59,839 bases of DNA from a virus (taxonomy: Duplodnaviria > Caudoviricetes): positions 1 through 59,839 of IMG/VR virus record IMGVR_UViG_3300022188_000012, one strand, 5' to 3'. A model generated the notes under the pieces. It saw only the letters and a program-made list of their open reading frames with translations. It was not told where the DNA came from and did not search any database. Every line of letters starts with the position of its first letter. Position 1 is the first letter of the stretch. Positions 21,924-59,839 of the stretch are shown piece by piece. A program made the position numbers and the translations under genes.

Positions 21924-24900
21924 TGGAATCTGCATCGTCGGAGAAGCCCCTGGGGCCGACGAAGAAAAGTATGGCAAACCCTTCATCGGTTGGGAGGGCC
22001 AATATCTTCGCCGTCAACTCAAAGCTGCAGGGATCAACTTCCACGAATGCTACGTCACTAACACAGTTCATGTGAGGCCGCCCAGGAATAACTACGACGC
22101 CCTCACTTCAGCTCAGATCTCTGAAGGGATAAGCCAGCTCAAAAAGGACATTGAACACTGGCGACCTAATGTTGTGATCGCCGTAGGCGCGAAAGCCCTC
22201 AAAGCCCTCACAGGGCACACCCAGATAACTCAATTCCGTGGAGCCGTCATCGAGTCCACCCTCGTCCCAGGCCAAAAGGTCGTCGCTACAATCCATCCTG
22301 GTGGCATCCTCAGAGGCGGAGAAAAGATGGGCCGCTACGAGCCCATTCAAATCCTGGACTTCAAAAAGGCCCTCCGTGAGTCAAGGTTCCCTGAAATAGT
22401 CTACCCAGAGCGCAACATTCTCTCAGTGTACTCACAAGCGAGGGCGTTGGAGCTTCTCGAATCTGTCACAGACATCCCTGATCCTGTCGCAGTTGACATC
22501 GAGACCATTGGCCCAACCCTATCAGCCTATGGAATCGCCACCAGCAAGAGTGAGGCTTTTGTAATTACGAAGGACCTCCTCCGAGACCCTACTATCCTTC
22601 GTGCAGTCGCACGATTCGCCTTCTCCTCCACACCGAAAATCTTCCACAATGCCCTCTTCGACTGCCTCCATGGGTTGGGCTACTACAAGATAATCACCAA
22701 CAACATCCTCTGCGACACCATGATTGCCCAACATGCAGCATATCCGACTCTTCCTAAGAGCTTGGCCTTCTGCGCTTCTATTTACACGAACGAAGTCTAT
22801 TGGAAATCGGAAGGAAAGACAATCTTCGACGACATCAAGAGAGGTCGCACTGTGGACTGGGAGAGCTTTTATATATACAACGGAAAGGACTGCTGCCTGA
22901 CCTACGAGATCTACGAGATCCTGATGAAAGAGATCGACGAATGGGGCGCTCGCAGAGCCTTCGATCTCATGATGTCTCTCATCCCTCCTTGCCTCTTCGC
23001 TATGCTCCGTGGGACAAAAATCTCCATGTACAAGCTCCTCCAATTCAAAGAAGAAAACGAAAAAGCTATCGAGGTCCTCACTCGGATAAAGGACGCCGTC
23101 ATCGGAGACGTAAACGTCCAGTCCCACAAGCAGCTAAAAGAACTCATCTACGATAAATGGGACATGCCCAAACAGTTCAGAGGTAAACGCCTCACAGTCG
23201 ATGACAAAAAACTCGCTATGCTTGAACGCTACCCTACTCCCTATCGTCATCAAATAGGAATGATCCGCCTGCTCAAAAAATATCTCAAACGCCGAGACTT
23301 CTACAACCTCAAGACCAACGAAGATGGCCGCATTCGCACAGCCCTCAAGATCACAGGAACCTACACTGGAAGGTTCTCATCCTCGGAGTCGATCTTTGGT
23401 TCAGGGAAGAATTTGCTCAACATTCCAAAGGAAACTCGCAAGTTCTACGTGGCTGATGATGACAAGATCATGATTCAGGGTGACCTCTCCCAAGCTGAAG
23501 CTCGCATCGTCGCAGCTCTCTGCGGTGACGAAAAATGGTTGAGGGAGTTCGATGAGATAGACGTGCACAGGAAAGTTGCTGCAGGGCTCTTCAATGTCCC
23601 CTTTGATCAAGTCACAAAGTACCAGAGGAACATCGCCAAGCGTGTAGCCCATGGATGTGTCGACGGTTTCACTGAGATTCTGACTCCTTCAGGTTGGAAG
23701 TACATCAGTCACTATGACGGGACTGAACCTCTGTACATTGTATTTCCTCAGCTTGATGGTCTAGGACTGTTTGCCTATCCTGATGAGTTTGCTGAGCTTC
23801 ATTACAAAGGGCCAATGGTGCATTTTAGGAGTCCTGGAATAGATCAATTTGTAACGATAGATCACTATCTTCCAATAAAGACATCGAGTGGTAGAGTGAA
23901 CAAAGTCCAGACTAGTGAGCTGATAAAGAAGAAAGATGTACGCCTTCCTAAAACCGTAAAGAACATAGGCATCATTGACGAACGCCCAGAGATGCTTCAA
24001 CTGTTTATCGCCTTCCAAGCTGACGGTACAGCATCTTGTAAGTACACGCTAGACTGGCACTTCGTGAAGAATCGTAAGATAGCTAGGTTGGTACACATCC
24101 TGGCATCCCTGGACATTCCTTATCATTACTACACTAATAAAGATGGGACAACAAAAATTTCTGTCCGCAAGTCTGATGTTCCAGGGTGGATTTGGAAGAA
24201 GTCTCTCAAAGACCTAGCTTTTCTAACATTGTTCAAGCACGATTGTCTGCAAGTCATGTCACGTGAGCTAACCAAATGGGATGGTCATGAAGGAAGGACT
24301 GCAAGACGCTTCATTACCACTGACATGGAGGTAGCTAAGGGAGCACAGCTTCTCCATGCTCTTTCAGGACTTGGAGGAGGCAACATCTACATAAAGCCGC
24401 CTGGAGAGTACTCAACAAAGCCAAACCTAGTGGTCGCACTAAACAACCGTAAGAACGTGAGGATAGGAGGACACATTGCCACCGTAAAGGATTGGGAGGG
24501 AACCGTTTACAACGTAGGCGTCCCATCAGGGTACTATCTCATTAGACGAAACGGTGTGATATCAGTTACAGGCAATACCCACTATGGGCTGGGCAAAATC
24601 CTCCTGAGCGAAATCCTCGGCTGCTCCCCAAAAGAGGCCCAAACCCACAAAGACCGCTACTACGAGCTGAGGCCAAAGCTCAAAGATTGGCAAGAACGGG
24701 TCAAACACACCGTAAGAACGAAACGTGTGTTGCGGACCGTGTTTGGACGTGTGATTCAATTTTTCGGACCAATTACGGACAAGCTATACCGTGACGCGGT
24801 AGCGTCCGAACCCCAATCAACGTCAGCGGACTATCTCAATACAGGGCTTGTTCGTTTGTACGAACATAATCTACCGTGGTGGGAATTTCTTTTGTCCGTG

Positions 24901-53796: not shown

Positions 53797-54004
53797 GCAA
53801 CTTGTAGAAGATCATTGGGCATACCACGATATCTTGATCCCGATCTTCCTCCAGGAAGACCCAAAAAAGTTCTACCAAGCCAAGAAATTATGGGGAGAAT
53901 GGTACAAAGCGATCGGAATCCATTTTTACAAGCACGCAATTGAGGACATTAAGGAAGGCATCATCTCAGTTCCTGGTGGAACCGACCCAAGAAAAAGGAG
54001 GTGA
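53774..54004 (+). CDS. Hypothetical protein
   Basis: AAGGAG RBS. Confidence 0.65.
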   Translation: MNWEERAKQLVEDHWAYHDILIPIFLQEDPKKFYQAKKLWGEWYKAIGIHFYKHAIEDIKEGIISVPGGTDPRKRR

Positions 54005-54010
54005 TCGCAG

Positions 54011-54181
54011 TTGACCGCAGAAGAGATCGCAACCCAAGTCCTTCACCTAGCGAAGGAGAAACAGAATGACCCTGCCACAGCGTCGAGCGACCTCATCGCT
54101 TCGATCCATGCGACGTGGATGGAGGTGGGGCTCATTCTAGGAAGGGAGATAGTACGTCTTAGAAAGGAGGGACAACTATGA
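54011..54181 (+). CDS. 56-aa hypothetical protein (TTG start), not in the ORF track
   Basis: AAGGAGGTGA RBS; open to TGA 54181. Confidence 0.55.
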   Translation: MTAEEIATQVLHLAKEKQNDPATASSDLIASIHATWMEVGLILGREIVRLRKEGQL

Positions 54182-54339
54182 CCACTAAAGTCGTTATTAC
54201 TAAAAATCCCCATAAGATCAAGGTTAACGATGTAGAGATTCCAGGGATCACCGACTACGAGGTTGACTGTATTCCTACGAGAGGACCAATTGTGGAGATA
54301 AAGATCAAGGCAGATATCCTTGAGGTGAAGAGTAGATGA
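54178..54339 (+). CDS. 53-aa hypothetical protein (MTTKVVITKNPHKIKVND...), not in the ORF track
   Basis: AAAGGAGG RBS, ATGA overlap. Confidence 0.6.
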   Translation: MTTKVVITKNPHKIKVNDVEIPGITDYEVDCIPTRGPIVEIKIKADILEVKSR

Positions 54340-54442
54340 AGGCTCAAGCTGCAAACGCAGTTGTTCTAGCTGGAACCGTCCTCATCACTCGATCAAAGAT
54401 CGGACTGGACGAGATTACCTTGACTCCACAGGAGATCACCCT

Positions 54443-54700
54443 ATGGGAGAGTGGAAAACGGTTGAGACCCCCACAGGCAAGGTCACCTTTGGGCCAGCAG
54501 CCCAAAGGCCGCTCAGGGGCGTCTGCTGGCACAAGCGACATCGCCGATGGCTGGTGAGGTACAAAGGGAAGTATGTAGGTTGGGCGAAAACCTTGGAACA
54601 AGCTAACGAAATGAGGAGGGCGTATGAGCTTGAAAGAGAAGGAAGAAAGGTTCAAAGTAAGGTTAAGGTTGATCGAACCTTTGTTGGGGACCGTTCCTAA
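54443..54700 (+). CDS. AP2-like DNA-binding domain protein
   Basis: RGVCWHKRHRRW...YVGWAKTLEQANEMR; AGGAG RBS. Confidence 0.6.
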   Translation: MGEWKTVETPTGKVTFGPAAQRPLRGVCWHKRHRRWLVRYKGKYVGWAKTLEQANEMRRAYELEREGRKVQSKVKVDRTFVGDRS

Positions 54701-55226
54701 AGACCCAGATGTCTACTCCAGATACATCGCTTCCAAGGCTCCCCAAGAGGAGTTCATGGACGAAGAGGTAGACACAGTGGAGCTCGAAGAGCAAGGGTGG
54801 ACAGGGTTCCACAAGGATGACAAGGGCATTTTCATCTACAACTACATGATCAAGGGCTTCCTAAAGAGCGCGTGTGAGGTATGTATGGGTGCGGGAATCA
54901 TAGACAAGATTCCAGCGTATAAAAAGTGGATTGACCTTACCGTCTTTATTGATCCACGCCGGATCAGGATGGGAAAGGCCGAACCCGATGGATGGCTTGA
55001 GCGGCCTCTGAGGACGATGACTCCCAAAGGGCCGAGGGTCACCGTTTGCAGGAGTGACTACGTTGATGAAGGGACGGAGATGGAGTTCACAGTTAGGATC
55101 ATCAAGAACAAGGTAGGATTGAATAAGGGCATTATAGCCCAGCTCCTGGAGTACGGCCAGTACGTGGGGTTAGGCCAGTGGAGAGGATCGGGAGGATATG
55201 GAAGGTTCGAGGCAGAGGTGCTCTAG
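54624..55226 (+). CDS. Stand-alone RAMP / Cas7-like RNA-binding protein
   Basis: N-terminal strand VRLRLIEPLLG, IKGFLK helix, C-terminal Gly-rich loop GLGQWRGSGGYGRF. Confidence 0.75.
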   Translation: MSLKEKEERFKVRLRLIEPLLGTVPKDPDVYSRYIASKAPQEEFMDEEVDTVELEEQGWTGFHKDDKGIFIYNYMIKGFLKSACEVCMGAGIIDKIPAYKKWIDLTVFIDPRRIRMGKAEPDGWLERPLRTMTPKGPRVTVCRSDYVDEGTEMEFTVRIIKNKVGLNKGIIAQLLEYGQYVGLGQWRGSGGYGRFEAEVL

Positions 55227-55655
55227 AACGGTGCGGTTTCGCAAAGGCGAAGTGCGGTATTGTGGCGCCACAGCATTGTACGGTGACGTGGTGGAGTAGT
55301 AAGGTTCAGCAGAGGTAAAGCCAGGTGAGGTGACGGCTAAGCCATGCCTTGCGTAGAGAAGCGAAGGAACCGCACAGTGCAGCCAAGGTCTTGTTTCGTA
55401 AGGTCCAGGGCGTAAGGGCAAGATAAAGCGAAGTGCCGTAAAGGAGGAGTTACGCGATGTACTGGCAAGGCCAGGTGAAGTGACGGCAATCTATTGCGAT
55501 GTAACGGTGACGTCAGGTAAGTCACCGTGAGGTGGCGGTGAGGTCAAGCAAACCAGCGTTAGGGAACAGCGGGGTTAGGAAACGTAAAGGCAATGCATAG
55601 TTGGACTAAGCGTCGGCAACGCTGGGCAAAGCTACGTCTAAGCAAGGCAGAGTAA
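55227..55655 (+). ncRNA. Putative non-coding guide-like RNA array of NGYNN pentamers
   Basis: About 80 phased pentamers in blocks of mostly 21/26/31 nt; no + strand ORF in the track; directly after the RAMP stop codon. Confidence 0.65.
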
Positions 55656-55679
55656 ACTATCTTTTCGTAGAGGTACACA

Positions 55680-56267
55680 ATGATAGTGATCACAGGAACA
55701 GGGAGAGCGGGGACAACCTTTCTAGTAAGCTTGTTCACGCTCTTGGGATTTAGGACAGGCTTTTCTAAAGAGGAAGTGCTCAAGACTAACTGGGGTTGGA
55801 AGCCTGGAGACGTGACAAGGGCTGGCTTAGAGAAAGAATGGTGGCAGGATCTTGATGTTGTCAAGAGCCCTTCTTTCTGCTACAGCATCCACGAGATCAT
55901 TGAGGCCAAGGAAGTCGAGTGCGTTCTCGTCCCGATGAGAGATCTTGATAAGGCTGCGAAGTCACGGATAGTGAACCAAGAACGTGCTGGCACAACATCG
56001 CCTGTGGCAGGGGGCTTTATCGGAGGGGCCACAGACCTGGAAACGCAAAAGAGGGTTTTGTTAGAGATGGTTTACAGCTTGTGCTTGTCCGTGGCTCGGT
56101 CTTTTGTTCCTGTGGTGTTCTTGGAGTTTCCAAGGTTCATCAATGACAGCGGATATTTGTTCAGAAAACTGACAGAGCAGGCCAAGATAGACCTAAACAG
56201 CGACGACTTCAACGAGGCCTTCACAAGGCTGTCAAGGCCTGAGTTAGTGGAGAGTTGGAATGAATAG
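55680..56267 (+). CDS. Sulfotransferase-like P-loop protein
   Basis: ITGTGRAGTT PAPS-binding-like loop, VVKSP, MRD. Confidence 0.65.
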   Translation: MIVITGTGRAGTTFLVSLFTLLGFRTGFSKEEVLKTNWGWKPGDVTRAGLEKEWWQDLDVVKSPSFCYSIHEIIEAKEVECVLVPMRDLDKAAKSRIVNQERAGTTSPVAGGFIGGATDLETQKRVLLEMVYSLCLSVARSFVPVVFLEFPRFINDSGYLFRKLTEQAKIDLNSDDFNEAFTRLSRPELVESWNE

Positions 56268-58365
56268 GAAGAGGTTTTCAGTAGTCATCCCTTACATTGA
56301 TGGAGGGGTTCCTCATGCGATGAAGCTCCTCCCTTCTCTAAAGAGGAGCAGTCTGAAGCCGAGGGAGATCATCTTTGCAGGGGCAGCCACAGACGGGACG
56401 ACGGAGTGGCTCAAGGCCCAGGAAGGGGTCACCATCGTGGAGAATCCAGGTGGTCCATCCCCTTACGGGGATAACGTCAACTTAGGTGTGCGCTTCGCCA
56501 AAGAAGAATGGGTCTTTGTCCTCAACATCGACACCATCGTTGGAGAGGAGTTCTTTGAGCGAATGTTGAGGGACCCCGGATCTGGGATGACAGGTCCTCT
56601 CTCAAATTGGGTTTTGCCGGACCAGCAGGTCAAGCCTGCCCGTCCCAAGGAGGTGGAGGCCATCAACGCCTCCCTGAAGGGGAGGCCCACACAGGATGCG
56701 CCCATCATCTCAGGCCTGGCGTTCTTGATCAGAAAGGAGACCTTCCTCTCCGTTGGAGGGTTTGACCCCTCGTTGAAAAACGGGGACGAGGACACAGACC
56801 TAAGCCTCAGGCTCCTGAAGGAGGGGTACACAAATAGGATCGCTTATGACACCTACATTTGGCATGAAGGCGGCCAAGGAGGGGTGCATAACCGACATCT
56901 CCTGGCGGAGAAACACCACTCCACGGAGTGGAGGATTGGATGTTATGTGAGGGTTAAAGCGGAGAGGGAAGAGGTCGAGCGCTGGCTGAGGAGGCACTAC
57001 CCCATCTTTGACGAGATCATCTTTGTCGATGACGGGTCACCCTTTGACTGGGAGGAGGTCCGATCCCGATGGGGAGAGATCACTGTCATCCACGGGGCAG
57101 AGGGCCTCTCAGAAGGGGAGCAGCGGGCCATAGGGATTGCGGTGGCCCGCCAAAAAGGGGTTACTGCTCTTGTTAACCTAGACCACGATGAGTTCCTGGA
57201 GCCAAAGGTCACACGAGAAGAGTTGGTCCGCCTCCTCTCCCTCCCATTGCCAACAACTCTGGGATTCGTTGCTAGGTTTCTTCATTTGTGGAACTCCCCA
57301 AACCAGTTCAACGTGGGTTATCCTCCTCATGAGCACTTGTTCATGATCAGGCTGTTGCCTGGGATCAGATACAGGTTTGACCCGTCCAAGAGGTTCCACG
57401 TCCCCAGGCTTCCACAGTTGACCAAATCCGCCATGGTGCCAACCAACATCAGGATTGTGCACGAGGGCTACATGGACCCTGTTGTCAGGGAAAGGAAGAG
57501 AAGGTTCTACGAAGAGGGTGATTCCATCAAGGACCCAGTGGACATCGGGGAAGAGGGATATGCGCATATGACAGATCAGCGCAGGCTGACCTTGGGCGAG
57601 TGGACCGGAAGGTCGGAGGACTACACAATTTCTGGGAACATGATGGCAGAAAGAGAGGAGCCCTACACCCTTCAGATTGCTCTTGAGACCCTTGCTCCCA
57701 TCACGGATGACCTCGTTCTGAGGGTTAGTCCCGACAGGGAGGATTTGGCAGCCATTGGAAGAAGGTTCGAGGCCACCCTCATTAGGACAGCCTGGAAACG
57801 AGACTTCGCGGCTCACAGAAATGAAATGCTTGCGAGGTCAAAAGGATCTTATGTCTTCTATCTTGACCCAGATGAGCAACTCCCTTGGCCAGGAGAGGTC
57901 CCTGAGATTGTGAACTACAGGCCCTCAGGAGCGATTTTCACGATCTCCCATCCTGGAGGGCTCAACTCCAAAGCGATTAGGTTGTTCCGCAGAGAGGGCG
58001 CCGTCTTCGACGGGATGGTGCATGAGCACGTCAAGGTCAGACGACCAGTTCGCGCAAAGGGCACGATCATCCATCTAAGGCGGCCACTCCAACGCTACAG
58101 GGAGATGAATAGGGAGATGATAAGGATGTGCCCCAAAGATCCGCGACCTTGGTTCGATGAGGGGTTGAGGACAATCCTCGACGGGAACTTCCCGAAAGGG
58201 GTGGCGTTGATCAGGAAGGCCATCAGGCTTGCGCCCGATGAAAGAGAAATGAAGGCGGCCTTGGTGAGAGTGCTTCTCACCTGGGCTAAGCTCCTTGCGA
58301 AAGAGAGCGGCGTTAACGTTCCGGATAAGTTTCATGATGAAACTTGCTCAGGGATGCCCAACTGA
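56260..58365 (+). CDS. Multi-domain GT2 glycosyltransferase with C-terminal TPR-like repeat
   Basis: FSVVIP...LNID...GGFD...EDTDLSLR; VDDGS...LDHDE; DFAAHRN...LDPDE...VHE. Confidence 0.85.
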   Translation: MNRKRFSVVIPYIDGGVPHAMKLLPSLKRSSLKPREIIFAGAATDGTTEWLKAQEGVTIVENPGGPSPYGDNVNLGVRFAKEEWVFVLNIDTIVGEEFFERMLRDPGSGMTGPLSNWVLPDQQVKPARPKEVEAINASLKGRPTQDAPIISGLAFLIRKETFLSVGGFDPSLKNGDEDTDLSLRLLKEGYTNRIAYDTYIWHEGGQGGVHNRHLLAEKHHSTEWRIGCYVRVKAEREEVERWLRRHYPIFDEIIFVDDGSPFDWEEVRSRWGEITVIHGAEGLSEGEQRAIGIAVARQKGVTALVNLDHDEFLEPKVTREELVRLLSLPLPTTLGFVARFLHLWNSPNQFNVGYPPHEHLFMIRLLPGIRYRFDPSKRFHVPRLPQLTKSAMVPTNIRIVHEGYMDPVVRERKRRFYEEGDSIKDPVDIGEEGYAHMTDQRRLTLGEWTGRSEDYTISGNMMAEREEPYTLQIALETLAPITDDLVLRVSPDREDLAAIGRRFEATLIRTAWKRDFAAHRNEMLARSKGSYVFYLDPDEQLPWPGEVPEIVNYRPSGAIFTISHPGGLNSKAIRLFRREGAVFDGMVHEHVKVRRPVRAKGTIIHLRRPLQRYREMNREMIRMCPKDPRPWFDEGLRTILDGNFPKGVALIRKAIRLAPDEREMKAALVRVLLTWAKLLAKESGVNVPDKFHDETCSGMPN
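58327..58345. promoter_or_regulatory. Phage palindrome AAGTTTCATGATGAAACTT
   Basis: 26 of 27 nt identical to the 21204-21230 context. Confidence 0.7.
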
Positions 58366-58433
58366 AGACGTTGTAAATGCAAAGCGTATCCTTGTTGAGC
58401 GTACGTACCTGGCGACTCCTGGAGGAGGACACC

Positions 58434-58988
58434 ATGCAGCTCCACGACGACCTTTTCAACATGAGGGCAAGATTTTATGAGGAGAGCTCTCGACGACGAG
58501 CAGACTCGTCCAGGGAGCTCCTCAAAGGACTGCTGGTTGTCCTCGCGTTGAAAGAGGACTCCTTCAAACTGTCGTCAGGCGCCCTCAGCAGGTGGTATGT
58601 TGATGCGAGAATGGTGACGACCCACCCTATCGGGGCAAGGCTGGTCGCAGAGGAAATGGCAGCTTGCATTAGAGAAGTGGATGCAGTCGGCGAGCCTGAG
58701 TTGGGGACGGTCCCGATCTTGGGCGCCCTCGCTGCCCTCAAGGGGTATCCCACCTTCATTGTCAGGAAGCAGCCTAAGGGACATGGGCTGGGCAAGATGG
58801 TTGAGGGCCACCTCGGCCAAAGGGTTGCCCTCATCGACGATGTCGCTACCACAGGCCACTCTCTGGAGAGAGCGATTGATATCTTAAAGGGCGCCCAGAT
58901 CGAGGTTGTGAAGGTTCTCATCCTCGTGAGTCGTGGATGGGAAGGGGAGGCTATCTTCACCTTAGAAGAGCTCACCACAAACAGCTAA
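58434..58988 (+). CDS. pyrE: Orotate phosphoribosyltransferase
   Basis: FKLSSG...YVD, VRKQPKGHG, PRPP motif LIDDVATTG. Confidence 0.85.
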   Translation: MQLHDDLFNMRARFYEESSRRRADSSRELLKGLLVVLALKEDSFKLSSGALSRWYVDARMVTTHPIGARLVAEEMAACIREVDAVGEPELGTVPILGALAALKGYPTFIVRKQPKGHGLGKMVEGHLGQRVALIDDVATTGHSLERAIDILKGAQIEVVKVLILVSRGWEGEAIFTLEELTTNS

Positions 58989-59334: not shown

Positions 59335-59640
59335 GGGGTCCTCAAGGAGGACCCCTTAGACGGGTTGAAGGATCTTCCTTCAAAGATCACATAGAGTCTC
59401 TTCAGGGCCACCTCAGACAAGCTAGCAGCTCACCCTTGGCAGATCTGTTGGAATGGGCGCACTCAGGGAGTGCGCCCACACAGATAAGCTGGCAGCTCTC
59501 ACCAAGACTGGTGTCTCCTGTCTATCTAGATCTAGATGCTTGATCTAGAAAGTGCCTCTTGCCTCTCTCCGCACTCGTCTAGATCTAGATAGATAGAACG
59601 AGGTCAACTTGGGAAATGGGGCGCACCTTCAGGTGCGCCC
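59335..59640. repeat. Cluster of inverted repeats in right non-coding end
   Basis: ggggtcctc/gaggacccc (59335-59355); two GGGCGCAC..GTGCGCCC hairpins (59454-59478, 59619-59640); 16-bp inverted repeat 59521-59536/59578-59593. Confidence 0.65.

Positions 59641-59793: not shown

Positions 59794-59839
<46 letters not shown>

Follow-up and report, generated by a model that had tools for sequence, protein, structure and literature searches.

Systems termed VIPR, for Viral Interference Programmable Repeat, are CRISPR-related, RNA-guided DNA silencers that were first described in 2026 (bioRxiv 10.64898/2026.04.26.720920) and that are also the subject of further preprints (bioRxiv 10.64898/2026.10.15.759431, 10.64898/2026.10.21.760802). 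They are described as mostly phage-borne and as silencing competing mobile elements (bioRxiv 10.64898/2026.04.26.720920). Their protein Vipr, a small stand-alone RAMP, polymerizes on a vrRNA made of GGY/NN pentamers, of which the GGY part is hidden and the NN part is presented to double-stranded DNA, with one base skipped per unit (bioRxiv 10.64898/2026.04.26.720920, 10.64898/2026.04.26.720927). Seven VIPR types have been distinguished, with relaxed repeats (NNNGG, YNNNG and NNNNG) and several array architectures, and the characterized vrRNAs contain 9-16 repeats (bioRxiv 10.64898/2026.04.26.720920). One published architecture is that of "staggered arrays with overlapping vrRNAs"; according to the legend of fig. 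S18, the vrRNAs overlap by 1 nt, so that the end of one marks the start of the next, and such arrays lie outside the architectures confirmed by small-RNA sequencing (bioRxiv 10.64898/2026.04.26.720920).

The locus described here lies in the window, i.e., the whole stretch of 59,839 nt that was analyzed, which represents a ~60-kb tailed phage from hydrothermal-vent metagenomes. We regard it as almost certain that an intergenic tract of this phage is a VIPR guide-RNA array, an assignment that follows from the gene for a Cas7-like RAMP adjoining the tract and from the alignment of its product's G-loop, a loop rich in glycine, to that of the SUSP1 Vipr. The array is a new member of the published VIPR kind. 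In our preferred reading, which we hold to be probable, it is a staggered vrRNA array in which each block of pentamers is one short guide and the register slips between blocks are the guide borders.

The vipr gene and its genomic setting

The vipr gene (54624..55226, + strand) is an ORF for a 200-aa stand-alone Cas7-like RAMP with the C-terminal glycine-rich loop GLGQWRGSGGYGRF. The protein matches phrog_4652, a family of unknown function, over its full length, and none of its more than 1100 homologs bears an informative name. Its AF2 model (pLDDT 84, built on 36 sequences) contains a long beta-hairpin (residues 123-147) and the C-terminal G-loop, and a Foldseek search with this model returned a type VII Cas7 as best match (8z4j_J, E 2.3e-6), together with Csm3, Cmr4 and Cas7-11 chains. 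In a profile search of PDB sequences, a weak match was obtained to chain 36pp_D, annotated as "SUSP1 Vipr protein" (E 0.16), and hhalign aligned the two Vipr proteins with a probability of 76% and an E of 2.2e-5 over 45 C-terminal columns, which cover the G-loop only. The kind of minimal RAMP that characterizes VIPR, in which an RRM core is combined with a glycine-rich loop and a hairpin forming the thumb, is thus present, its sequence support being confined to the C-terminal part.

The 195-aa protein of SUSP1 (KT454805.2) carries the G-loop GVGDWRPRFGRF, which aligns with GLGQWRGSGGYGRF of the window to give the common pattern G-x-G-[DQ]-W-R...G-R-F. In the SUSP1 Vipr, W178 and R179 contact G2 and Y3, and D177 is the G1 contact (bioRxiv 10.64898/2026.04.26.720927). 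The former two residues are retained in the window as W186 and R187; D177 is replaced by Q185, a Gln that is invariant across the clade of the window's protein. This replacement would fit an RNA motif that leaves position 1 free to vary while keeping G2 and Y3 constant.

With regard to the surrounding genes, PADLOC left vipr and the two genes that follow it without a match and returned no more than a weak ShosT match for a phosphoribosyltransferase. Overlapping the start of vipr, an 85-aa ORF (54443-54700) shows a weak match to AP2/HNH-like DNA-binding families (E 0.007 against Pfam, 0.0005 against PHROG); this ORF is probably not a VIPR accessory gene, as it is not conserved in related loci. 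The 195-aa ORF that follows the array has a P-loop-like N-terminus and no family hit, and the region 55680-58988 further encodes the 203-aa phosphoribosyltransferase and a 701-aa protein that contains two GT2 glycosyltransferase regions; none of these three downstream proteins is conserved beside vipr in other loci. More generally, no accessory (vap) gene regularly accompanies vipr in 58 loci: none of 8 neighboring ORFs of the window is conserved beside it there, save a 56-aa ORF that recurs in 2 of the loci.

The genome encodes a terminase, a portal, a protease, a major head protein, a tape measure, a holin, a DNA polymerase and a helicase. The contig opens with eight G (1-8), and its last 43 nt (59797-59839) are all T; these unusual ends may be assembly or library artifacts rather than true termini. 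Its left end is AT-rich (GC 0.39) and includes an exact 24-nt direct repeat (311-334 and 398-421, 87 nt apart), each copy of which contains the palindrome GTGAAAAATTTCAC, and, upstream of it, a run of iteron-like words (140-260); the repeat and these words may be operator or origin-like sites. Near the right end, TCTAGATCTAGA words make up a 19-nt inverted repeat (59518-59596) whose arms are 41 nt apart.

A pentanucleotide array punctuated by extra bases

The intergenic tract downstream of vipr (55227-55679) separates the 200-aa ORF (54624-55226, + strand) from the 195-aa ORF (55680-56267, + strand). The array itself occupies 55225..55655 on the + strand, its 5' end lying inside the vipr stop codon, and is followed by a short trailer (55656..55679, + strand) in which the ribosome-binding site for the following gene, with its ATG at 55680, is located. 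The array was parsed with an HMM of six states, five arranged as a cycle and one for an optional sixth base, in which no concept of a block is built in. This parse divides 55225-55655 into 83 units of the form x-G-Y-N-N with a mean period of 5.19 nt, 16 of the units being hexamers and 0 tetramers, and with G at position 2 in 0.90 and Y at position 3 in 0.86 of the units. Non-coding pentanucleotide repeats therefore adjoin vipr on its own strand, as is characteristic of VIPR loci.

The periodicity appears as a single sharp Fourier line at 5.18-5.20 nt, the strongest such signal within the 59.8-kb window. G and A carry this line, which is strongly strand-specific. Its power at 5.19 nt is 16.6, compared with a mean of 2.07 and a maximum of 4.64 in 500 dinucleotide-preserving shuffles and with at most 4.89 in 586 other 426-nt windows of the genome. 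The initial annotation, which had called for a comparison with shuffled sequence, is in this respect borne out: 0 of the 500 shuffles reach the observed power. Tandem Repeats Finder has no row in 54000-57000 (two unrelated rows were obtained across the whole window), which agrees with the initial description of blocks that share a frame and not a sequence.

The units fall into blocks, most of which end in a hexamer. Block 0 (55225..55245), called by the HMM, has 4 units, the last being the hexamer CGCAAA; it is leader-proximal and overlaps the stop codon. The frame proposed in the initial annotation and the HMM both delimit block 1 (55246..55271, 26 nt, start GGCGA), block 2 (55272..55292, 21 nt, start AGCAT), block 3 (55293..55313, 21 nt, start GGAGT), block 4 (55314..55334, 21 nt, start GGTAA), block 5 (55335..55365, 31 nt, start GGCTA) and block 6 (55366..55386, 21 nt, start GGAAC). 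Block 7a (55387..55416, 30 nt, start GGTCT) is without a terminal extra base and shows a local loss of register at ~55407-55416; it is merged by the HMM with block 7b (55417..55442, 26 nt), which has an in-phase GGCAA start. Frame and HMM again concur on block 8 (55443..55463, 21 nt, start GGAGG), block 9 (55464..55484, 21 nt, start GGCAA), block 10 (55485..55505, 21 nt, start GGCAA) and block 11 (55506..55536, 31 nt, start GGTGA). Block 12 (55537..55562) measures 26 nt in the initial frame, the slip in the HMM parse lying 5 nt later (55567/55568), and blocks 13 (55563..55588, 26 nt, start GGAAC) and 14 (55589..55614, 26 nt, start GGCAA) derive from both sources. Block 15 (55615..55640, 26 nt, start GGCAA), which had been lumped with the array end, and the last three units, AGCAA GGCAG AGTAA (55641..55655), are HMM calls. 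All blocks lie on the + strand.

The block lengths listed initially were reproduced (26, 21, 21, 21, 31, 21, 30, 26, 21, 21, 21, 31, 26, 26 and 26 nt, plus a 41-nt remainder), as was the near-universal GG start, found in 15 of 16 blocks with the AGC at 55272 as the exception. The regular +1 slips likewise hold up, since 14 of the 16 proposed starts coincide exactly with post-hexamer starts of the HMM; the other two are 55417, where there is no slip, and 55563, for which the HMM gives 55568. The lone 30-nt block is explained by 55417 being an in-phase GGCAA start without a slip, and the HMM adds one slip before 55641, within the 41-nt remainder.

The spacing of the slips is more even than expected of random placement. 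For the 15 interior blocks of the window array, a variance of block size as low as that observed was reached in 4 of 20000 random partitions, and a minimum block of at least 4 units in 0 of 20000. When arrays with random slips were simulated, blocks of 4-7 units made up 32% of those found by the parser and truly 32% of those simulated, i.e., a random distribution was returned as random, so that parser bias is not the source of the slip regularity. The tract and its slips, as first noticed, are thus real and well described, and the system to which such arrays belong had already been published.

The whole window gave 0 Rfam hits at gathering thresholds, and a search of 55000-55900 at E values up to 10 gave SNORD22 as its sole match, a chance one; no tRNA was found in a tRNA search, the predicted fold of 55227-55679 is no better than that of shuffled sequences (z -0.65), and there is no sigma-70-like promoter or terminator match between the vipr gene and the array. 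Between blocks, Rfam, the promoter and terminator scan and folding detected no terminator, ribozyme or tail. The array would be cotranscribed with vipr directly upstream, as suggested by the shared strand, the absence of a gap and the lack of a promoter or terminator match.

Compared with type II SUSP1, the locus likewise combines a protein of ~195-200 aa carrying the common G-loop with pentamer repeats that lie on the gene's strand in flanking intergenic DNA. However, SUSP1 has separate vrRNAs of 11-13 strict GGYNN repeats, each with a ~40-nt structured tail, whereas the window has 83 continuous units without tails, with a base added every 4-6 units and a first G that is free in all units but those that open a block. 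Additionally, the period of SUSP1 is 4.98-5.03 nt (in the strongest-signal 70-nt windows) versus 5.19 nt in the window, and sequence similarity outside the G-loop is too low to align. The separate, strict GGYNN vrRNAs with a structured 3' tail that define type II are therefore not found in the window.

The resemblance to class 1 CRISPR systems is that a RAMP would bind guide RNA in a fixed step via its thumb and G-loop and that the array would consist of exchangeable guide cassettes. In contrast to CRISPR, the step is 5 nt in the window rather than 6, guide information is interleaved with fixed bases instead of forming a contiguous spacer, and the window contains no 23-50-nt direct repeats (TRF, Rfam CRISPR-DR), so that the alternation of ~23-50-nt direct repeats with spacers that defines a CRISPR array is missing. 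No cas genes were found among the 19 ORFs scanned against family libraries; over these ORFs, the locus is a minimal viral one with neither a CRISPR array nor cas genes, as in other VIPR systems. A TRAP-like or CsrA-like protein-sponge RNA had been considered for the tract and was abandoned in view of the neighboring RAMP gene and of the published VIPR systems.

Array architecture across related loci

All 6 IMG/VR loci that were first found by protein have a 5.2-nt period adjoining the gene. A wider search yielded 58 loci with 33-74% protein identity, in which the dominant periods are mostly 5.12-5.28 nt. An x-G-Y-N-N array shares the strand of vipr in 49 of 52 distinct loci and lies on the opposite strand in 0; it is located downstream of vipr in 29 of these 49, upstream in 17 and on both sides in 3 (L025, L027 and L030). 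Two of the 52 distinct loci, L035 and L036, have no array. In L038 (3976-4400; identical to L040), which encodes a 39%-identical Vipr homolog, no x-G-Y-N-N array adjoins the gene, and a purine-rich pentamer tract with a period of 5.14 and x-G-A-like units is present ~1.3 kb downstream; this tract may be a non-canonical repeat variant. In two gut phages, a second array is located 3-4 kb from the first (G001, 22878-23012; G003, 69906-70130).

These data bear on two alternatives in which the tract is no guide array at all. A chance or low-complexity purine-rich sequence that happens to parse well has its purine richness in its favor and nothing further; we give this practically no weight, as neither the 500 dinucleotide shuffles nor the 586 other genome windows approach the observed peak and the pattern persists next to homologous genes across such protein divergence. 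The other alternative, that the tract acts as DNA, e.g., as a curved or protein-binding element of the kind found at packaging or centromere-like sites, draws on the closeness of 5.19 nt to half the helical repeat (10.4/2). It is nonetheless very improbable, since the signal is strand-specific, with 49 of 52 loci having it on the strand that codes for vipr and none on the opposite one, and since the tract adjoins the gene for an RNA-binding RAMP, arrays of other VIPR types having been shown to be transcribed and Vipr-bound (bioRxiv 10.64898/2026.04.26.720920).

The guide-array reading can be described in quantitative terms from the 53 distinct arrays, which together comprise 3839 units, 727 of them hexamers. 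Their 688 interior blocks include 123, 218, 164 and 61 of 4, 5, 6 and 7 units, respectively, so that 82% fall in the 4-7 range versus 30% under a geometric null and 32% for the simulated random-slip arrays after parsing. In the pooled arrays, the unit that opens a block after a slip has G at position 1 in 0.90 and at position 2 in 1.00, followed by Y and by A in 0.66. Inner units have a near-uniform first base; G2 is at 0.89-1.00 overall, and the extra base is variable. The junction would thus be best described as one added G, x-GG-Y at the border against x-G-Y within the block, which would fit the wording of a 1-nt overlap in the legend of fig. S18 (bioRxiv 10.64898/2026.04.26.720920). Some block borders are without a slip, namely that at 55417 and those in long in-phase tracts elsewhere, and the extra base is therefore not obligatory.

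The slip architecture is most likely the one that the preprint calls staggered vrRNA arrays. As in the staggered VIPR of the preprint, a phage-borne stand-alone Cas7-like RAMP is accompanied by a tail-less pentanucleotide run with fixed G-Y and variable bases, the 1-nt overlap given in the legend fits a one-base register shift at the borders, and the YNNNG repeats named in the preprint's methods are the inner-unit pattern of the window array. What sets the window apart is that the block sizes, the 5.2-nt mean period and the GGYA start do not figure in the main text or legends of the preprint. Abutting candidate guides that are offset by one base are found here, the equation with fig. S18 being drawn from its legend.

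The mean block size varies among arrays, from 4.3 to 6.5 units (a spread reached in 0 of 5000 permutations), and in L025, with a single vipr gene and two arrays, it is 6.4 in one array and 5.2 in the other. This variation is relevant to a further alternative, according to which the array would give one long, unprocessed, Vipr-coated RNA whose hexamers are register adjustments, about one per filament turn, and not guide borders. In the SUSP1 filament, a turn does comprise six subunits in the free state and five in the DNA-bound state and accommodates ~25 nt of vrRNA (bioRxiv 10.64898/2026.04.26.720927), the commonest block sizes are 5 and 6 units, and the blocks are not separated by a terminator, ribozyme or tail. 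Against this, the protomers of a helix are equivalent and would need no sequence mark per turn, the SUSP1 vrRNAs being without one; a turn-based spacing is difficult to reconcile with mean block sizes that differ among arrays, and even within L025; and a purely structural spacer leaves unexplained that blocks are exchangeable cassettes of unrelated content (see below). We consider the long filament improbable, slightly more so than guides that span several blocks (see below).

Block turnover and the nature of the guide

In six related gut-phage arrays and in three further groups, block families follow one another collinearly, and the arrays differ in that entire blocks are retained, missing or substituted; a comparison of related phages for block-wise gain or loss had been proposed in the initial annotation. 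The blocks form 126 families, 45 of which are common to at least 2 arrays. Three blocks present in L056, amounting to 88 nt, are missing from L053, and L009 contains a single additional block compared with L008. Conserved blocks are found near both array ends, with variable blocks between them.

The evidence that breakpoints coincide with block borders is modest. For segments shared between arrays, the start lies at block offset 0 in 12 of 73 cases, and the end lies at +4, just past the conserved GGYA, in 18 of 73 and at +9 in 16 of 73. A match of at least 88% identity in a relative was found for 115 of 387 real blocks and, when the frame was displaced by 5-15 nt, for 92-109 of 387; plain pairwise nucleotide alignment of related arrays gives scattered gaps. 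Within homologous blocks, changes are most numerous at position 4 (131) and position 5 (102), followed by position 1 (76), position 3 (62) and position 2 (6).

Strain variation was also apparent in the vent metagenomes. Of the 8 listed runs that contain this DNA, none is recorded as an RNA run. Contigs of 4 DNA runs show no insertions, deletions or joints in the array. In runs X2, X3 and X5, vipr alleles were observed that are ~10% diverged from the window over 54600-55211; the X2 and X3 variants leave the window sequence at 55211 and enter a different pentamer tract, from which it follows that the array is strain-variable while the gene is kept. In one variant contig, the array ends differently and is again followed by a trailer similar to that of the window (loose end at 55633).

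In the mechanism that we propose, one Vipr protomer would occupy each five-base unit, with G-Y held and the variable bases reading double-stranded DNA discontinuously, by analogy with type II VIPR, for which one protomer per unit and discontinuous reading were shown (bioRxiv 10.64898/2026.04.26.720920, 10.64898/2026.04.26.720927); the rule of a 1-nt skip is carried over to the window array by the same analogy. The second-level periodicity would then be punctuation, each block being one short guide composed of an opening G-G-Y-A-N, 3-6 units of x-G-Y-N-N and one extra base before the next GG, so that successive guides would be staggered by +1. That blocks are separate functional guides is what we infer from comparing sequences. 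The initial suggestion that the 6-nt junctions delimit guide units thus gains from the start signature, the tight sizes and the whole-block turnover, all of which are comparative in nature. The accompanying count of 8-12 variable bases per block stands only if positions 4-5 alone are read, as position 1 of inner units is also variable; position 4 of the opening unit, on the other hand, is semi-fixed, which also bears on the count.

A counterpoint to single-block guides is that a block of 4-6 units offers ~8-12 read bases under the NN rule, a very low specificity for a stand-alone guide, and falls below the 9-16 repeats of known vrRNAs. It is therefore conceivable, though in our estimation unlikely, that two or three blocks (9-16 units) together make up a functional vrRNA, the extra base being internal, e.g., as a bulge or as a one-base jump in target register. 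Such a guide would match the length of characterized vrRNAs (bioRxiv 10.64898/2026.04.26.720920) and would overcome the apparent shortage of bases for unique targeting, and neighboring blocks are indeed often conserved together (e.g., families 13-14-15 and 09-10-11). On the other side, single blocks are inserted, lost or replaced alone (L008/L009, L049/L056, L057/L060), each block has its own GGYA start, and pairs of blocks behaved as decoys did in target searches, in which a two-block motif gave about as many hits as chance would, both being weak tests. The initial idea that adjacent blocks combine into longer guides accordingly finds no support here, single blocks exchanging on their own.

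The target searches were performed against a local database of 5 whole gut-phage genomes and the window (632,668 nt, arrays masked) as well as against larger collections. For 139 distinct blocks and 7 reading rules (NN with skips of 0-3; NNN with skips of 0-2), the mismatch distributions of best hits equaled those of unit-shuffled decoys, and the same was true of 116 adjacent block pairs under 15 combinations of skip (0-2) and junction (-1 to +3), a weak test. A scan of IMG/VR with a motif from an 8-unit block of L034 gave 61 stretches, on which the other 13 blocks did not converge and which match chance expectation, and a scan of JGI metagenomes with the two-block motif of 55314-55365 gave 3 unrelated high-GC contigs, a number close to chance, again without convergence and with little power as a test. 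The databases searched probably lack the targets. In the sense direction, the dinucleotide frequencies of positions 4-5 show a correlation (r 0.61) with those of codon positions 1-2; a coding-target signal was rejected on finding the same in all six frames (0.45-0.61) once base composition was removed.

A variant of the single-block reading would reconcile short guides with a continuous transcript. Blocks might be mini-guides of 4-7 Vipr protomers, about one turn of a SUSP1-type filament, that are strung on one unprocessed transcript and of which neighbors bind one target together. The GG start and the extra base would break the filament register, and specificity would come from several neighboring mini-filaments. 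We put this forward as a speculative idea, about as unlikely as that of guides spanning several blocks; if true, it would constitute multivalent, punctuated RNA-guided DNA recognition, unlike the single long filament of type II.

Under the preferred reading of a staggered array with one short guide per block, the locus reveals no new kind of system; its value is that, with bench study of VIPR having so far dealt with type II only, the locus and its 49 relatives provide a quantitative description of the "staggered" architecture. The details added are guides of 4-7 repeats (array means 4.3-6.5), a GGYA opening unit and cassette-like turnover, together with a free first base that is paired with the Asp-to-Gln change at the G1-contacting position of the G-loop. 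These features lead to predictions for small-RNA mapping and for the minimal length of a functional guide, and they bear on the prospect of a compact programmable DNA binder.
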